DNA of 64,000 bases, taken from positions 1 to 64,000 of the forward strand of contig JAVJQW010000055.1 in NCBI GenBank assembly GCA_040218735.1, written 5' to 3'. The position numbers were made by a program, and so were the translations under genes. The DNA is from Deltaproteobacteria bacterium. Lineage in GTDB: Bacteria > Myxococcota > Kuafuiibacteriia > Kuafuiibacteriales > Kuafuiibacteriaceae. This document shows positions 1 through 4,422 of the stretch, in pieces (positions within the stretch are counted from its first letter, which is position 1; each line of letters opens with the position of its first letter). The notes beneath the pieces are model-generated. The model did not search any database, was not told where the DNA came from, and saw only the letters and a list, made by a program, of their open reading frames with translations.

Positions 1-95
1 TTGCTCACCACGTCGACGAGCTCCTCGATGAGCTCCACGCTCACCTCCAGAACGATGAACCGACCAGGAGAGGCTGCATTGTTTTTTCTGTTCAT
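1..95 (-). CDS. four-helix-bundle protein (IVP/Avd-like), 5' portion only; gene runs off the window edge
   Basis: Not in the ORF track. Minus strand from ATG at 95 reads MNRKNNAASPGRFIVLEVSVELIEELVDVVS, which aligns with [28 protein letters not shown] of 498..845. A purine-rich GGGGGGAGGT lies just upstream, and the leader motifs are shared with 498..845. Confidence 0.7.
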   Translation of the reverse strand, partial: MNRKNNAASPGRFIVLEVSVELIEELVDVVS

Positions 96-260
96 ACCTC
101 CCCCCGGCGCAGGCGGCGTGACGAACGGCCCTCCGTTCGGATGGCTACTTTCAGTGGAATCTATTCGATGGCTCGGTCGTGGCGGGGAATCAGAATCACA
201 AGCCGATCGGCGCGACGGTTGCGCCGCACATAAGGGATGAACAGAAAAAACAATGCAGCC
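72..260 (-). promoter_or_regulatory. structured leader of the minus-strand four-helix-bundle gene, closed by a perfect 24-bp inverted repeat
   Basis: 72-95 GGCTGCATTGTTTTTTCTGTTCAT is the exact reverse complement of 237-260. Inside are motif A (209-227), motif B (105-122) and the hairpin CGAACGG-CCCT-CCGTTCG (122-139). Confidence 0.7.
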
Positions 261-397
261 GTCGCCCGGTAGCTCGGTGTGTGCACCTCAACCAAGAGGA
301 CGGAGAGAGAGTCCTCCCCTTCAATCCCGCGGAAGAAAGAACCTCTCCGGTCAAAGTGCCTTAAGGAGCTGAAACCATCCCCAGTGCCACGACCCCC

Positions 398-521
398 GGC
401 CGAGTCCTTGGTTGGGTTCACACCCATGAAGCGGCGCAACAGTCGCGCCAAGGACCGCAGACGGTCCTTGTCACGCCTCCTGCGCCGAGAGGGGGGCATG
501 AACCCAACCAAGAACTCGACC
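398..521 (+). promoter_or_regulatory. structured leader of the plus-strand four-helix-bundle gene, closed by a 23-bp inverted repeat
   Basis: 398-420 pairs with 499-521 (21/23). Inside are motif A GCGGCGCAACAGTCGCGCC (431-449), the hairpin CAAGGACCG-CAGA-CGGTCCTTG (449-470) and motif B GTCACGCCTCCTGCGCCG (470-487). Confidence 0.7.
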
Positions 522-845
522 TACCGCTTCGTGGCGCTCGACGTGGCGCTGGAGATGATTCGTCAGCTCCGAGAGCCGCTTGCGAAGATTCGGAAGCACG
601 ATGCGGATTTGGCGAAGCAGATTAGGAAGGCGGCCGCGTCGGTGCCGTTGAATGTGGCGGAAGGGAGCCGGCGCGCCGGGGGCGACAGAGCGCACGCGTT
701 CCGAGTGGCGCTCGGGAGCGCCGACGAGGTGCGCGCCGCGTTGATGTGCGCGGATGCGTGGGGGTATGCGGCGGTGGATGACGAGCTGCTGGCGACGCTG
801 GATCGCTTGATGGGGCTCATCTGGGGGCTCGGCGGTAGGCGGTAG
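498..845 (+). CDS. four-helix-bundle protein (TIGR02436 / 23S rRNA IVP / Avd-like), 115 aa
   Basis: Family motifs [19 protein letters not shown] and [11 protein letters not shown]. Size is typical from ATG 498, which follows GAGAGGGGGGC. Confidence 0.88.
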
Positions 846-858
846 AGGAGGATGCTCG

Positions 859-878
859 GCGCCGTCGCGAGGCGGCGC
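859..878 (+). other. GC-rich hairpin with GCGA (GNRA) tetraloop
   Basis: GCGCCGTC-GCGA-GGCGGCGC: 8-bp stem with one G-U pair, lying between the stop codon and the repeat array. Confidence 0.55.
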
Positions 879-884
879 AGAGCG

Positions 885-1106
885 AATCGGACTCGGAATC
901 GGACTCGGAATCGGACTCGGAATCGGACTCGGAATCGGACTCGGAATCGGACTCGGAATCGGACTCGGACTCGGAATCGGACTCGGACTCGGAATCGGAC
1001 TCGGAATCGGACTCGGAATCGGACTCGGAATCGGACTCGGAATCGGACTCGGATTCGGTCACGGACTCGGATTCGGTCACGGAGTCGGATTCGGTCACGG
1101 ACTCGG
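885..1106. repeat. tandem hexamer array (NNNCGG x37)
   Basis: Mostly alternating AATCGG/ACTCGG, shifting to ATTCGG-TCACGG-ACTCGG triplets at the right end. 222 nt in uninterrupted hexamer phase between convergent genes. Confidence 0.95.
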
Positions 1107-1122
1107 ATCCGAATCCCATCCC

Positions 1123-4100
1123 CTAAAACATCACGTACACCGAGTCCCCGACCTCCTCCTCCAGCTCCCCACTCGTCCGGTACTCCTCGCCCAGCGCCAG
1201 CACCTCGCTCACGATCGACATCAGCGACGCCGCCGCGAAGCGCGGGTTCCAGTTCGAGGTGATCGCGCGCGCCATATCCCCAGGCCCCGCCGTGCTCGCC
1301 GCGGCGAGCTCGCTCGGGATCTCGAAGATCGGGCGTTTGTCGTCCGGCTCGTTGAGGTCGCGCCACGTCGAGGGGGCGTTGGTGAGCGCCTTCGAGATGC
1401 GGACGTCGCCGGACGTCGCGATGCGCGCCGCCGTCGGGAGGAAGCGCTCGAAGAACACTGCCTGGAGTTTGTCGACGAAGCCCGGGTCGAAGTTCTGCTT
1501 CGCCTCGACGTCGAACTCGACGTGGCCCTTCGCCTCCGGCCACGACGGCTGCTTGTCCTTGTAGAGGATGAAGTTCTCGAGGACGAGGACGTCCATCTCC
1601 GTGCGCATAAAACACCGGTACGCGTCGTACGGCGTGCACACGATCGGCTCGCCGCGCACGTTGAACGACGTGTTCACCACGACGCCGTAACCCGTCTTCT
1701 CCTTGAACGCCTTGATCAGCCGGTAGTACGTCGGGTGCTCGTCGCCGTTCACCGTCTGCACACGCGCCGAGTAGTCGACGTGTGTAATCGCCGGGACGTC
1801 CGAGCGCGGCCGCTTCACGACCTCCGTGAGGTCCTCGCCTTCCTTGCGCTCCGCGACGTCGAGCCGCCGGGACGCCTTCACCGGCGCGACCAACAACATG
1901 TACGGCGACCGGCCCTCCATCTCGAAGAACTCCGAGACGTCCTCCTCCAACACACTCGGCGCGAACGGACGGAACGACTCGCGGTACTTGATCTTGAGGT
2001 TCAGGTTGACCTGCATCTCCTGGTTGCGCGCGTCGCCGAGGATCGAACGCGCCCCCAGCGCACGCGGCCCGAACTCGAGGCGGTCCGCGAGGTGCCCGAC
2101 GACCCGGCCCGACGCCAGGACGTCCGCCACCTTCGACGCACGCTCCTCGGGAGACACACGCTCGAAGGGATAACCGTTCGACTCCAAGAAGCCCTGGATC
2201 TCGTCGTCCGAGAACGACGGCCCGAGGTACGAAGCGCCCTGCGACGAACGCCCGTCCGGACGCACCTTCCGCTCCTTGCCGAAGTACGAGTGGTACGCGT
2301 CGAGCGCCGCACCCAGCGAGCCGCCGGAGTCGCCGGCCGCGGGCTGGATGAAGATGTCGTCGAATGGCCCCTCGCGCAGGAGCTTGCCGTTCGACACGCA
2401 GTTCAACGCGACGCCGCCGGCCATGCAGAGGTTCTTCATGCCGGTCAGCTCTTGGGCGTGCTGCGCCATCTTCATCATCACCATCTCGGTGACGACCTGG
2501 ATGGACTTCGCGATGTCCATCTCACGCTCGGTGATCCACGCGTCCGGGTCACGGGCCGGCCCACCGAACAGCTCCGCGAACTTCGCGTTGGTCATCGTGT
2601 TCTCGTCGAGGAACGAGAAGTACGACAGGTCGAGCTCGATCGAGCCGTCGTCCTTGAGCTTCACCAGGTTGTCGAGGATCAGGTCGACGTACTTCGCCTC
2701 GCCGTACGGCGCGAGACCCATCATCTTGTACTCACCCGAGTTCACCTTGAAGCCGGTGAACTGCGTGAACGCCGAGTAGAGCAGCCCGACCGAGTTCGGG
2801 AAGTGCATCTCCTTCAGGATGTCGACGCGGTTGCCGCGCCCGACGCCGATCGATGCCGTTGCCCACTCCCCGACGCCGTCGATCGTCAGGATCGCCGCCT
2901 CCTCGAACGGCGACGGGTAGAACGCGCTCGCCGCGTGTGAGCGGTGGTGCGCCTCCTGGAGGATCAGGCCGTCGTAGTGCAGGTAGTCGCGGATCAGCCG
3001 CGGGATGTGGAGCTTGTAGAGCGTCCACGACGGGATGAACCGTCCCCAGTTGTCCGCGCCCTTCTCACCCGCCACCGCCTGCGTGTGCAGCAGCCGCTCG
3101 AACGTCAGCGGCGCGTTGTCGTAGTAGACGACCGCCGACAGGTCGCGCTGATCGATCTTCGCCTGCTCCAGGCAGAAGTTGATCGCGCTGTGCGGGAAGC
3201 GGCGGTCGTTCTTCTCACGCGTGAAGCGCTCCTCCTCCGCCGCCGCGATGATCTCTCCGTCCTTCACGATCGACGCCGCGCTGTTGTGATAGAACGCCGA
3301 GACCCCGAGGATGTACGTCCCCTCCGCGCGACGCCGCTTCGCGGGCTTCGGCGCGGCCGGCTTGGGCAACAAACTGCGCGAAGTGATCGCCTCCGCAATC
3401 TGAGTTGCAACGACCTCGTGCCCGTACGGCGAGAAGTGCACGTCCTCTTCGAACGGGATGCGCACACGATCTTCGCGCGACATCTTCATGATCGGCGCGG
3501 TGATGTCCGCGACGTGGACTTTGTTCTTCGGCGCCGCGACCCGCTCGAAGAGCGGCTGGTAGATCGGCTCCACCTCGTCCTTGATGTTGTGGTACGTCGG
3601 CAGCGGCACGATGAGCACCGGCGTCGGCGACGCCTCCGCCGCCCACTGCCGGAGGATGGCCTCCATCAGCCGCCACCCCTCGGTGTCCGCGCTCTTGTAG
3701 TCGGGGAAGGGCTGAAAGCCGGACGCCTTCATCACCGCGGGGCGCAGCCGGCCCACGACCGGTCCGAACAGCTCTCGCGCCTTCTTCGCGCGCGGGTCGT
3801 TTCGATAGAAGTCGACCGCCTTGTACGCGAGCTTCAGCCGCGGGTCCCGACGGTGCGAGCCGAAGCGATCGTCCTCCTCGGTGTCGACCGGCGGACGCTC
3901 CCAGGGGCAGGGCACGTTGCCGAGCTCCAGCTGAGATCCCTTCAGCGTGAAGAACGGCTTCGGCATCATCACCTTGTCGCCGGTGACGCGGTCGATCGAG
4001 ATGCGGCTCGAGACCTTGATGCGCTCGATGTTCTCGGAGAGCACCGAGATGACGATCAGGTCCGCCTCGATGTCCTTCGCGTAGTTCTTCCACGACAGGT

Positions 4101-4422
4101 ACTGCTGGTCGGTGCCGGAGCCCGACAGGCCGAAGTTGTACGTCTCGGCGTCGAGCTTCGCGCCGACGAGGTCCGAGAAGCGCTCGTGGTTCGAGCAGAG
4201 GTCGCCGGCGGTGTACGAGTCACCGAAGAAGAGGATGCGCGGGCGGTCGCCCTTCTTCTTCTCGAAGTCGATGTCGTTCCTGAAGCCTTGCGCGTTTGTC
4301 TTCACGAACGAGCCGCCGAGCTCGTTCGGGATGCGGGCTTCGAGGTTCTCGACGTAGCGGTGTCCGAGCTGCGGGTCGTGTCGGATCACCATGCGGTGGG
4401 TGGATTGCCAAATACGGAACAT
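1123..4422 (-). CDS. SGNH/GDSL hydrolase fused to NodU/CmcH-family carbamoyltransferase
   Basis: N-terminal FFGDSYT...[11 protein letters not shown]...DVHFSPYGH. Then [80 protein letters not shown] and [12 protein letters not shown]. Confidence 0.92.

Follow-up and report, generated by a model that had tools for sequence, protein, structure and literature searches.

A three-copy cassette of inverted PF05635 genes with start-site hairpins in a Myxococcota genome

The intervening sequences (IVSs) of 23S rRNA in Coxiella, Leptospira and others are regarded as selfish elements. We know of no function assigned to their PF05635/TIGR02436 (S23p) proteins since the family was discovered in these rRNA intervening sequences. 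A 2024 paper still describes the domain as functionally uncharacterized (PMC11270868). In Coxiella, RNase III cleaves the 28-bp terminal stem of the IVS and thereby removes the Shine–Dalgarno (SD) sequence of the S23p ORF, whose ATG is preceded by variable tandem heptamers (PMC4990558). The family is also related to Avd of diversity-generating retroelements (PMC10053308). A literature search, with most subscription journals and supplements outside its coverage, returned no paper on free-standing multi-copy PF05635 cassettes.

Here we describe such a free-standing locus at the start of the window, the whole 64,000-nucleotide stretch of DNA that was analysed. The window opens inside a cassette of ~1.65 kb and contains its right-hand two thirds. 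The complete order is hexamer array, GC hairpin, gene1, two hairpins, gene2, GC hairpin and hexamer array, of which the following lie in the window.

1–95, minus strand: 5' end of gene1 (31 codons), encoding a four-helix-bundle protein; remainder on contig C13, full length 117 aa
72–129, minus strand: 3' arm (mRNA sense) of the gene1 hairpin, an inverted repeat; 0 differences in 58 nt across the three copies
130–201, minus strand: apical part of the gene1 hairpin, and the least conserved; a small local hairpin lies at 121–139
202–260, minus strand: 5' arm of the gene1 hairpin; 1–2 differences in 59 nt among cassette copies
261–397, no strand: central spacer between the two hairpins; 8–11 of 137 nt differ between copies, with a 13-nt indel in one copy
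398–457, plus strand: 5' arm of the gene2 hairpin, comprising an inverted copy of the first codons (398–420) and motif A (431–449)
462–521, plus strand: 3' arm of the gene2 hairpin, comprising motif B (470–487), the SD-like GAGGGGGG (489–496), the ATG at 498 and codons 2–8
498–845, plus strand: gene2, encoding a four-helix-bundle protein of 115 aa; PF05635 48.6 bits, TIGR02436 52.4 bits
853–882, plus strand: GC-rich hairpin directly 3' of the gene2 stop; terminator-like, without a T tract
884–1120, plus strand: hexamer array of GGACTC/GGAATC units, ending in a short inverted unit before the stop codon at 1123–1125

An earlier note on this DNA had proposed two divergent, related genes, and both are found as described, on the minus strand from the ATG at 95 (95–93, the ORF running past the contig start) and on the plus strand from the ATG at 498, with 50% identity to each other. 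Its TIGR02436 assignment is likewise borne out, as full-length gene1 (55.1 bits) and gene2 both score above the profile cut-off of 24, and gene2 matches PF05635 at E 1.1e-12 (cut-off 33.8 bits). The subfamily profile matches PDB 2gsc (XCC0516; E 1.2e-10), a solved four-helix-bundle relative. Among the cassette copies, dN/dS ranges from 0.01 to 0.08 across both genes (0.06–0.08 for gene2) at dS of 0.20–0.26. Judged from these substitution ratios, strong purifying selection keeps gene1 and gene2 intact, whereas the Coxiella ORF is decaying. PADLOC gave no defence-family match, and a complex prediction of gene1 with gene2 returned a score of 0.01, which is informative in neither direction. The central spacer presumably holds divergent promoters; a sigma-70 promoter scan found no consensus.

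The leaders of the two genes are conserved as structures. Motif A (209–227 in reverse complement against 431–449, a 19-nt match at 95%) and motif B (97–122 against 470–495, 85% over 26 nt), both predicted from the letters alone, are real, as are the 86-nt and 20-nt spacers between them and the local hairpins that abut motif B (121–139 and 450–470). They are not separate boxes, however, but the arms of one inverted repeat, forming the two strands of a single ~60-nt imperfect hairpin per gene, and the proposed CGGCGCA/TGCGCCG pairing, although true, is merely one 7-bp helix of that hairpin. In each gene the outer helix pairs the ATG and codons 2–8 with an upstream inverted copy. The arms of gene2 (398–457 and 462–521) match over 60 nt at 75%, and those of gene1 comprise 72–99 with 233–260 (28 nt, 96%) together with 105–129 and 202–226. 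For gene1, the 3' arm contains codons 1–8, the ATG, a purine-rich SD-like stretch (about 97–104) and motif B (105–122), and the 5' arm is made up of motif A and an inverted non-coding copy of the ATG and codons 2–8 (237–260). The SD-like stretch faces an internal loop, followed by the 7-bp helix and further interrupted helices; that this stretch is not itself paired in the present cassette counts against occlusion.

The gene2 leader (385–535) folds at -86.1 kcal/mol (z -7.7) and the gene1 leader at -97.7 kcal/mol (z -5.3); for neither did any of 200 shuffles reach this stability. Among the 23 pairs of the outer helices compared between gene1 and gene2, 13 are identical, 8 are compensatory and 2 are mismatched in gene2, and the gene2 hairpin of the copy on contig C66 shows one further compensatory change from G-C to A-T. 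The structured leader that the earlier note had supposed is borne out by the folds, and the compensatory pairs show covariation. The apical region of the gene1 hairpin in the C66 copy differs from the other two at 12–13 of 72 nt. The inner part of the hairpin has the same mismatch pattern in gene1 and gene2, and because this pattern is common to both paralogues the hairpin is older than their split and its arms are not simply homogenised. These comparisons were made pairwise by script; MAFFT, applied to the six leaders, set the 5' arm of gene2 opposite the gene1 loop, and its alignment was not used. Palindrome-correcting template switching could keep such arms complementary without selection, which counts against the interpretation preferred below. 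An Rfam 15 scan of positions 1–1300 found no family at its gathering score, so that the leader matches no described family at threshold; the best match, MIR918 (34.9 bits against a gathering score of 268), is a generic long hairpin, and four others were weaker.

Genome-wide (11.6 Mb, at most one mismatch), motif A has 4 matches and motif B has 6, all within the three copies of the cassette, and the motifs are therefore specific to it rather than dispersed. The two 8-mers put forward as recognition sites, GTCGCGCC and GTCACGCC, are not supported in that role, as they occur 4335 and 1415 times in the genome and the hairpins of homologues have unrelated sequences. This bears on an autoregulated protein–RNA module, in which the hairpin would be the binding site of the encoded proteins as Avd-like RNA-binding bundles, a reading of the sequence that we consider unlikely. 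Asymmetric internal loops and mismatches conserved across paralogues that have diverged by 50% are as expected for a recognised shape, and the gene pair and hairpin have been inherited jointly in three copies. The proteins are basic (pI 9.2 and 9.6) and, like Avd, small; Avd belongs to a related four-helix-bundle fold family (PMC10053308). Nonetheless, the NCBIfam Avd equivalog model NF033474 matches neither protein, and unlike Avd systems the cassette contains no reverse transcriptase (RT), template repeat or variable repeat; its family-matched ORFs are the two bundle genes only, none of its ORFs is RT-sized, and its neighbour is a carbamoyltransferase gene. Besides the sheer frequency of the 8-mers, the hairpins of homologues are alike in position and not in sequence, and recognition would for that reason need shape or co-evolution.

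The family is unevenly distributed among relatives. PF05635 matches per genome range from 0 to 86 among 20 genomes of the bacterial family, with many copies in G006 carrying in-frame stops, and in a sample of the phylum the family is present, at E<=1e-12, in 27 of 151 genomes, where bursts and inverted gene pairs recur. Start-site hairpins, counted as inverted repeats scoring at least 17 with the 3' arm over the SD or start, were present in 9 of 28 gene rows of the family set (19 without) and in 19 of 39 rows of the phylum set (9 genomes, several rows being copies of one element; 20 without). None of 400 control ORF starts in this genome qualified, the maximum score being 13. That many PF05635 genes in relatives have no start-site hairpin counts against the interpretation preferred below. 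In many homologues an anti-SD motif, CTCC, lies in the 5' arm and pairs with the SD, and two paralogues in G015 are separated by 3 compensatory pairs, which alter N-terminal residues. In a Polyangiaceae MAG, both genes of a convergent pair have a perfect hairpin across the SD (21 and 29 bp), and the pair comes with direct (CTGACA)n arrays. The gene pair lies between direct repeats in four lineages, namely this genome, the L083 MAG, G106 (as 152-nt tandem repeats) and G060. A scan for the close subfamily yielded 5 loci in the genome collection, L083 included, and one in metagenome contigs that is the same element as L083.

The inverted repeats would be non-functional if they were by-products of inverted duplication or of quasi-palindrome template switching at a palindrome-prone locus. 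Inverted gene pairs did arise independently in different lineages, as gene1 and gene2 share 50% identity and L083A and L083B 53–54%, against 36–42% for cross-lineage pairs, and many loci carry palindromic arrays. Such an origin alone is nevertheless highly improbable, since conservation of the arms far exceeds that of the loop and of synonymous sites, the conserved mismatches show that the arms are not being homogenised, and the feature recurs with unrelated sequence in distant homologues and in none of the 400 controls.

With moderate confidence, and from sequence comparison, we interpret the element as a selfish gene cassette of IVS type whose leader occludes translation and is probably sensitive to RNase III. 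The hairpin in the mRNA leader would be a cis element that occludes translation initiation, and the long leader duplex would probably also be cut by RNase III, an rnc-type gene for which is present in this genome. The leader hairpin would then correspond, in a free-standing gene, to the RNase III stem of 23S IVSs, which flanks the PF05635 ORF on both sides and takes in its SD. As in the IVS, the protein belongs to PF05635/S23p and the start of translation is embedded in a long duplex. Some relatives of the cassette genes are enclosed by inverted arms altogether, namely two other paralogues in this genome, on contig C9 (score 34) and, weakly, on contig C39 (12), and several in relatives; the best flank inverted repeat of the C66 copy scores 9, all of these being raw scores. 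The cassette differs from the IVS in lying between protein-coding genes, with no rRNA match in the Rfam scan of 1–1300, and in having two genes rather than one. Its duplex is confined to the 5' end of each gene instead of enclosing the whole ORF, and its outer repeats are direct hexamer arrays, not inverted termini. SD- or start-occluding and RNase III-processed leaders likewise cover the initiation region with a stable stem; here, however, the arms, at about 60 nt, are much longer than those of typical regulatory hairpins, and the 5' arm nearly duplicates the first codons.

The strand on which the hairpin acts deserves attention. The antisense folds, at -109.5 kcal/mol for gene2 (z -11.2) and -105.3 kcal/mol for gene1 (z -6.0), are more stable than the sense folds by 23 and 8 kcal/mol, and four A.C or C.A mismatches in the sense strand are G.U pairs in the antisense strand. 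Because the antisense strand folds better, the strand in play may not be the mRNA. One reading of this is that the hairpins act antisense and would terminate, insulate against or process transcripts that arrive from outside or from the partner gene. They would then shield each gene against antisense read-through and would allow the processing of host operon transcripts, rbfA–truB for example. All four transition-type mismatches wobble-pair in antisense alone, and one copy lies within an operon whose transcription would cross the gene2 hairpin antisense. We regard this role as distinctly unlikely, as four mismatches, two of them shared by descent, make for weak statistics, no T tract follows either hairpin, and an arm over the SD or start in many homologues would go unexplained. 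A terminator scan likewise found no terminator with a T tract.

The genome holds three copies of the cassette at 91–92% nucleotide identity with unrelated flanks, in keeping with the earlier proposal that leader, gene, hairpin and hexamer tail form a repeated unit. The contigs break at 96 nt common to the cassette copies, and it is this three-fold repetition that puts a contig end at the start of the window. Contig C13 was paired with the window's contig by elimination, as C43 joins C70 via rbfA–truB synteny. On the leftward extension gene1, too, ends in a GC hairpin, homologous to that at 853–882, and a hexamer array. One copy, arrays included, occupies 1646 nt between rbfA and truB (gene identities confirmed), and these genes are adjacent, without the cassette, in 17 of the 18 family relatives that have truB. 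In a congener, G001, the orthologous carbamoyltransferase 3' end (89% nucleotide identity) is followed by neither cassette nor array, a comparison that records absence of the cassette rather than a clean empty site, because the far-side gene of G001 has no counterpart here. The insertion at rbfA–truB and the copy-number bursts in relatives fit the small mobile cassette that had been offered as an option. The three copies are old, with dS about 0.2, which counts against mobility.

Similar features recall passenger insertion sequences of the IS630/Tc1-mariner type and their MITE-like derivatives, of which relatives provide examples. The gene of G012 is carried by a 1.77-kb element that has terminal inverted repeats and encodes a DDE_3/HTH transposase; from its Pfam architecture we take this element to belong to the IS630 family. 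In G003 it sits in a unit of ~0.5 kb whose copies are 99% identical and bounded by inverted repeats and inverted hexamer arrays. The present cassette resembles these in being multi-copy at unrelated sites, absent from orthologous sites in relatives and part of a patchy family. It differs in having no transposase among its ORFs, no convincing terminal inverted repeats or target duplication across the three copies, and copies that are old. Short G-rich units (12–16 nt), inverted copies of the left end, terminate two of the three copies, but they are array units.

The arrays beyond gene1 and gene2 share one orientation, that is, they are direct and not inverted. Tandem Repeats Finder (TRF) reports the array in the window at 884–1107, with a period of 12 (two hexamers) and 14.6 copies, and its end adjoins the stop codon of the convergent carbamoyltransferase gene (1123–1125). 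About 28 runs of the same hexamer type occur elsewhere in the genome, as do 420 arrays whose period is divisible by 6, some of them in coding low-complexity regions. The hexamer tail is thus present and part of the unit but not specific to it, and because such arrays are common elsewhere they may be unrelated to the cassette. The cassette may have inserted into existing arrays or the arrays may travel with it, and the data fit both. Four metagenome runs were compared, as contigs only, with the complete C66 copy. One contig bridges the left flank, the array and the gene1 3' end, with an array 72 nt shorter; among these contigs none spans the cassette end to end and none skips it, and no empty/occupied polymorphism or circle was seen. 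In metagenomes X1 and X2 the cassette bins have ~3x the word depth of the flanks, a value that is not a copy number.

The hairpins and arrays might instead work as DNA. Single-stranded folds or cruciforms could serve as copying or moving sites, as in attC or the ends of IS200/IS605, or the direct arrays could excise a circle that re-integrates into other arrays by homologous recombination. A multi-copy element with unrelated flanks, an rbfA–truB insertion that includes the arrays, the direct repeats that enclose gene pairs in four lineages, solo arrays built from this hexamer type, polymorphic array length and an mRNA strand that is not the better-folding one are all compatible with this. We nonetheless think it improbable, as the hairpins sit mid-cassette at gene starts and not at cassette ends, no recombinase was found in or adjoining the cassette, the two sites compared in relatives have neither the cassette nor a solo array, and the four metagenome runs yielded no circle or empty site; nor would it explain 3' arms over the SD or start in many lineages. 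Under the preferred interpretation of an IVS-like cassette with an occluding leader, the element would be a selfish, duplicative or mobile module and not a housekeeping locus, and recombination through the flanking direct arrays would be its simplest route of movement.

It is possible, and we suggest it tentatively from the comparison of sequences, that inverted PF05635 gene pairs with start-site hairpins between direct tandem arrays form an undescribed class of Myxococcota cassettes. These would be small, transposase-less, mobile, free-living relatives of the rRNA IVSs, spread by array recombination or by hitch-hiking on IS630-type elements, with two proteins that act on their own hairpin or array nucleic acids. 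The locus and its relatives give testable handles on the function of PF05635/TIGR02436: a conserved, covarying cis structure at the gene start, a recurrent two-gene unit, consistently associated tandem arrays, copy numbers that vary by orders of magnitude, and genomes in which an element with a transposase carries the gene. Should the hairpin prove to be a switch for RNase III or for translation, the free-standing genes would be linked mechanistically to the rRNA IVSs; if the cassette moves via its arrays, small gene modules would have a means of spreading that is new.

The element at the start of the window contains two divergent genes whose proteins belong to TIGR02436/PF05635. Against TIGR02436 they score 52.4 (gene 2) and 55.1 bits (gene 1; cut-off 24), gene 2 scores 48.6 bits against PF05635 (cut-off 33.8), and a subfamily profile search led to the solved structure 2gsc (E 1.2e-10). 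Both reading frames, the leader motifs A and B with their spacers of 86 nt and 20 nt, and the array downstream of gene 2 are as an earlier sequence-only note described them.

95 to 93, minus strand: ATG of gene 1, whose ORF continues past the window edge
97-122 and 470-495: motif B, 85% match across 26 nt
209-227 (reverse complement) and 431-449: motif A, 95% match across 19 nt
72-99 and 233-260: arms of the gene 1 inverted repeat (28 nt, 96%), extended by 105-129 and 202-226 (repeat finder)
398-457 and 462-521: arms of the gene 2 inverted repeat (60 nt, 75% complementary, loop 4 nt; repeat finder)
498-845, plus strand: gene 2
884-1107: hexamer array 3' of gene 2, period 12, 14.6 copies (TRF)
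1123-4422, minus strand: 1099-aa protein with an N-terminal SGNH/GDSL hydrolase-like region and a carbamoyltransferase (Carbam_trans_N, _C)

At up to one mismatch, motif A has four matches and motif B six in the 11.6-Mb genome, every one inside the cassette element. The suggestion that their 8-mer cores act as recognition sites is not supported, as these occur 4335 and 1415 times genome-wide.

The window is the beginning of its contig (C33), and positions 1-1077 recur at C66:240220-241289 (91.9% identity) and C70:1-1094 (91.1%) in a genome with eight PF05635 matches. Contigs C13 and C43 each end with an exact copy, in reverse orientation, of the window's first 96 nt, which places the assembly break within a repeat. 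The full unit consists in order of hexamer array, GC hairpin, gene 1, hairpin, spacer, hairpin, gene 2, GC hairpin and hexamer array; array to array, it measures ~1.62 kb in the complete copy on C66. Read leftwards through the contigs, gene 1 is thus found to end in a hexamer array as well, a question the earlier note had raised. The two outer arrays share one orientation (C66:239662-239913 and 241117-241283; window 884-1107); with direct arrays and divergent genes, the 3' tails of the mRNAs would be mutually complementary for up to ~200 nt if the arrays are transcribed. Copy-to-copy divergence in both genes amounts to dS 0.20-0.26 with dN/dS 0.01-0.08: these are old copies, and selection maintains both proteins. 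The three copies are almost invariant at the start of both genes, with one difference over the first 31 codons in gene 1 (window 1-129) and none over the first 18 in gene 2 (window 498-552), against 15-19 synonymous differences per copy pair in the remainder of each gene. Either an additional constraint or a tract of gene conversion around the cassette centre could explain these near-invariant starts.

In both leaders, the gene-proximal arm of the inverted repeat carries motif B, a purine-rich Shine-Dalgarno (SD)-like stretch, the ATG and codons 2-8, while the distal arm carries motif A and a non-coding inverted copy of the ATG and first codons. The pairing of A with B proposed earlier does exist, but it is merely one 7-bp helix within a hairpin of ~60 nt per arm, because both motifs sit in much longer inverted repeats. 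Folded in the mRNA sense, the gene 2 leader reaches -86.1 kcal/mol (z -7.7) and the gene 1 leader -97.7 kcal/mol (z -5.3), with 0 of 200 shuffles as stable in either case. An Rfam scan of the element found no family near its threshold.

Four lines of evidence indicate that the start-site hairpin is under selection. Among the copies, the gene 1 hairpin arms differ at 0/58 and 1-2/59 nt, against 12-13/72 nt in the loop and a synonymous divergence of ~0.2. Between gene 1 and gene 2, 13 of the 23 pairs in the outer helices are identical, 8 have changed on both sides with pairing kept and 2 are mismatched in gene 2; in the inner parts, both paralogues share their mismatches and the internal loop facing the SD-like stretch. 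It follows that the hairpin is older than the gene 1/gene 2 duplication and that its arms do not undergo simple homogenisation. The CGGCGCA/TGCGCCG helix shows one compensatory change from G-C to A-T in the C66 copy.

The fourth line is that start-site hairpins of unrelated sequence recur in other lineages. When ungapped inverted repeats with a 3' arm overlapping -25 to +45 of the start are scored, gene 1 obtains 25 and gene 2 17; the closest homologues, in G010 (41-45% identical), obtain 23, with a perfect arm over codons 2-8. Scores of 23 and 26 are found both for two paralogues in G015 and for the convergent gene pair of a Polyangiaceae MAG; the two G015 hairpins differ by three compensatory pairs that alter N-terminal amino acids. 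Scores of at least 17 occur in 9/28 gene rows of the family set, compared with none of 400 control ORF starts of this genome (mean 8.0, maximum 13). In a phylum sample they occur in 19/39 gene rows from 9 genomes, several rows being copies of one element, and many 5' arms begin with a CTCC anti-SD motif that pairs with the SD. For the cassette's hairpins, structure, conservation, covariation and position on the translation start are direct observations.

The antisense strand folds better than the sense strand for both the gene 2 hairpin (window 385-535; -109.5 kcal/mol, z -11.2, versus -86.1) and the gene 1 hairpin (window 60-275; -105.3 kcal/mol, z -6.0, versus -97.7), because four A.C/C.A mismatches of the sense strand become G.U in the antisense. 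With only four such events, of which two are shared by descent, there is no more than a hint that the hairpins could act as antisense RNA or single-stranded DNA.

The surroundings of the copies give evidence that the cassette was inserted. One cassette half on C70 lies beside the 3' end of infB, DUF503 and rbfA, and the other half on C43 beside truB, so that C43 joins C70; C13 joins the window's contig by elimination. Between rbfA and truB, cassette and arrays together take up 1646 nt. In the same-family relatives, 18/19 of which have truB, an orthologous-site comparison of the kind suggested earlier finds rbfA and truB abutting or overlapping, with no array, in 17 of 18; the eighteenth (L048, G017) holds an unrelated 280-aa ORF in the spacer where this genome has the cassette. 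The rbfA-truB spacer may be a permissive insertion site. No truB match was found in the 75% complete G001, the sole congener compared. At the window's own site, G001 shows neither cassette nor array: a 140-nt spacer containing a simple hairpin separates its orthologue of the carbamoyltransferase gene (89% nt identity) from a convergent methyltransferase gene. The site is not cleanly empty, because this genome lacks a counterpart of the methyltransferase gene. Among contigs from four metagenome runs, compared with the C66 copy, there was no cassette-less form. Array length varies: in one contig that reaches from the flank into gene 1, the array between them is 72 nt shorter.

The hexamer tail, proposed earlier as part of the repeated unit, accompanies the cassette but is not specific to it, because like arrays occur elsewhere in the genome and in relatives without PF05635 genes. 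The same hexamer type forms ~28 further runs of at least 6 units, some between convergent genes, some as palindromic pairs and some in coding low-complexity regions, and TRF reports 420 arrays in this genome whose period is divisible by 6. CGGAnT-type arrays lie at:

window 884-1120
C61:134943-135318
C55:113493-113873
C42:399345-399464
C8:143785-143898
C66:150650-150781

Coding-like arrays of this type give acidic Ser-rich stretches, and the unit can encode Asp-Ser-Glu-Ser on either strand. Tandem repeats accompany PF05635 genes with striking regularity. Inverted hexamer arrays enclose this genome's two other paralogues (C9, C39) and genes in G003, G006 and G010, placing the gene in the loop as in rRNA intervening sequences (IVS); enclosing inverted repeats score 27-57 in 10/31 rows, scores that have no null distribution. 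Inverted gene pairs lie between direct repeats in this genome, the MAG, G060 and G106 (152-nt repeats).

Neither the protein family nor the IVS principle is new, and the PF05635 domain is still regarded as functionally uncharacterized (PMC11270868; PMC10053308). The cassette is not a member of the rRNA IVS, DGR or Rfam families, and it may be related to IS and MITE elements. A search of largely open-access literature found no account of PF05635 cassettes that are free-standing, paired and multi-copy and that combine start-site hairpins with flanking arrays. In the Coxiella IVS, RNase III cuts a 28-bp terminal stem, so that the S23p ORF loses its SD; upstream of the ATG are variable tandem heptamers (PMC4990558). 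By this parallel, the leader-RNA hairpin would block translation initiation and serve as an RNase III substrate; an RNase III gene is present in this genome.

PF05635 match counts in the 20 genomes from the bacterial family are 86, 26, 14, 10, 8, 6, 1 and 1, with none in twelve, and many G006 copies contain in-frame stops. In the phylum sample, 27/151 genomes have a match at E<=1e-12 and more bursts are seen; at least 8 genomes contain divergent or convergent pairs. Such pairs arose more than once: identity is 50% within gene 1/gene 2 and 53-54% within the MAG pair, against 36-42% across lineages. In G106 (L105, L115-L118), a divergent pair of ~1.7 kb occurs in at least four copies (94-97% identical) within 152-nt tandem-repeat arrays, and its start-codon inverted repeats resemble those of the window. 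In G012, the PF05635 gene is a passenger of a 1.77-kb element with a DDE_3/HTH transposase and terminal inverted repeats, in copies 95-99% identical; the element at L081 (G012:C5:6362113-6365403, about 1212-2927) has a ~190-bp palindrome of short repeats and at least five near-identical copies. In G003, a ~0.5-kb unit around the gene (copies 99% identical; L062, L067, L072, L078) reads 29-nt inverted repeat and (CCTGGA)n, PF05635 gene, (TCCAGG)n and inverted repeat, thus ending in inverted repeats and inverted arrays. The ends of this unit have a 10-nt core that recurs, in opposite orientation, at the ends of the G012 element, and L067 and L078 have an adjacent 1.4-kb repeat in common. The PF05635 family behaves like a selfish element; the cassette, present in three copies and absent from orthologous sites, may be mobile, and its direct arrays would allow excision and re-integration by homologous recombination.
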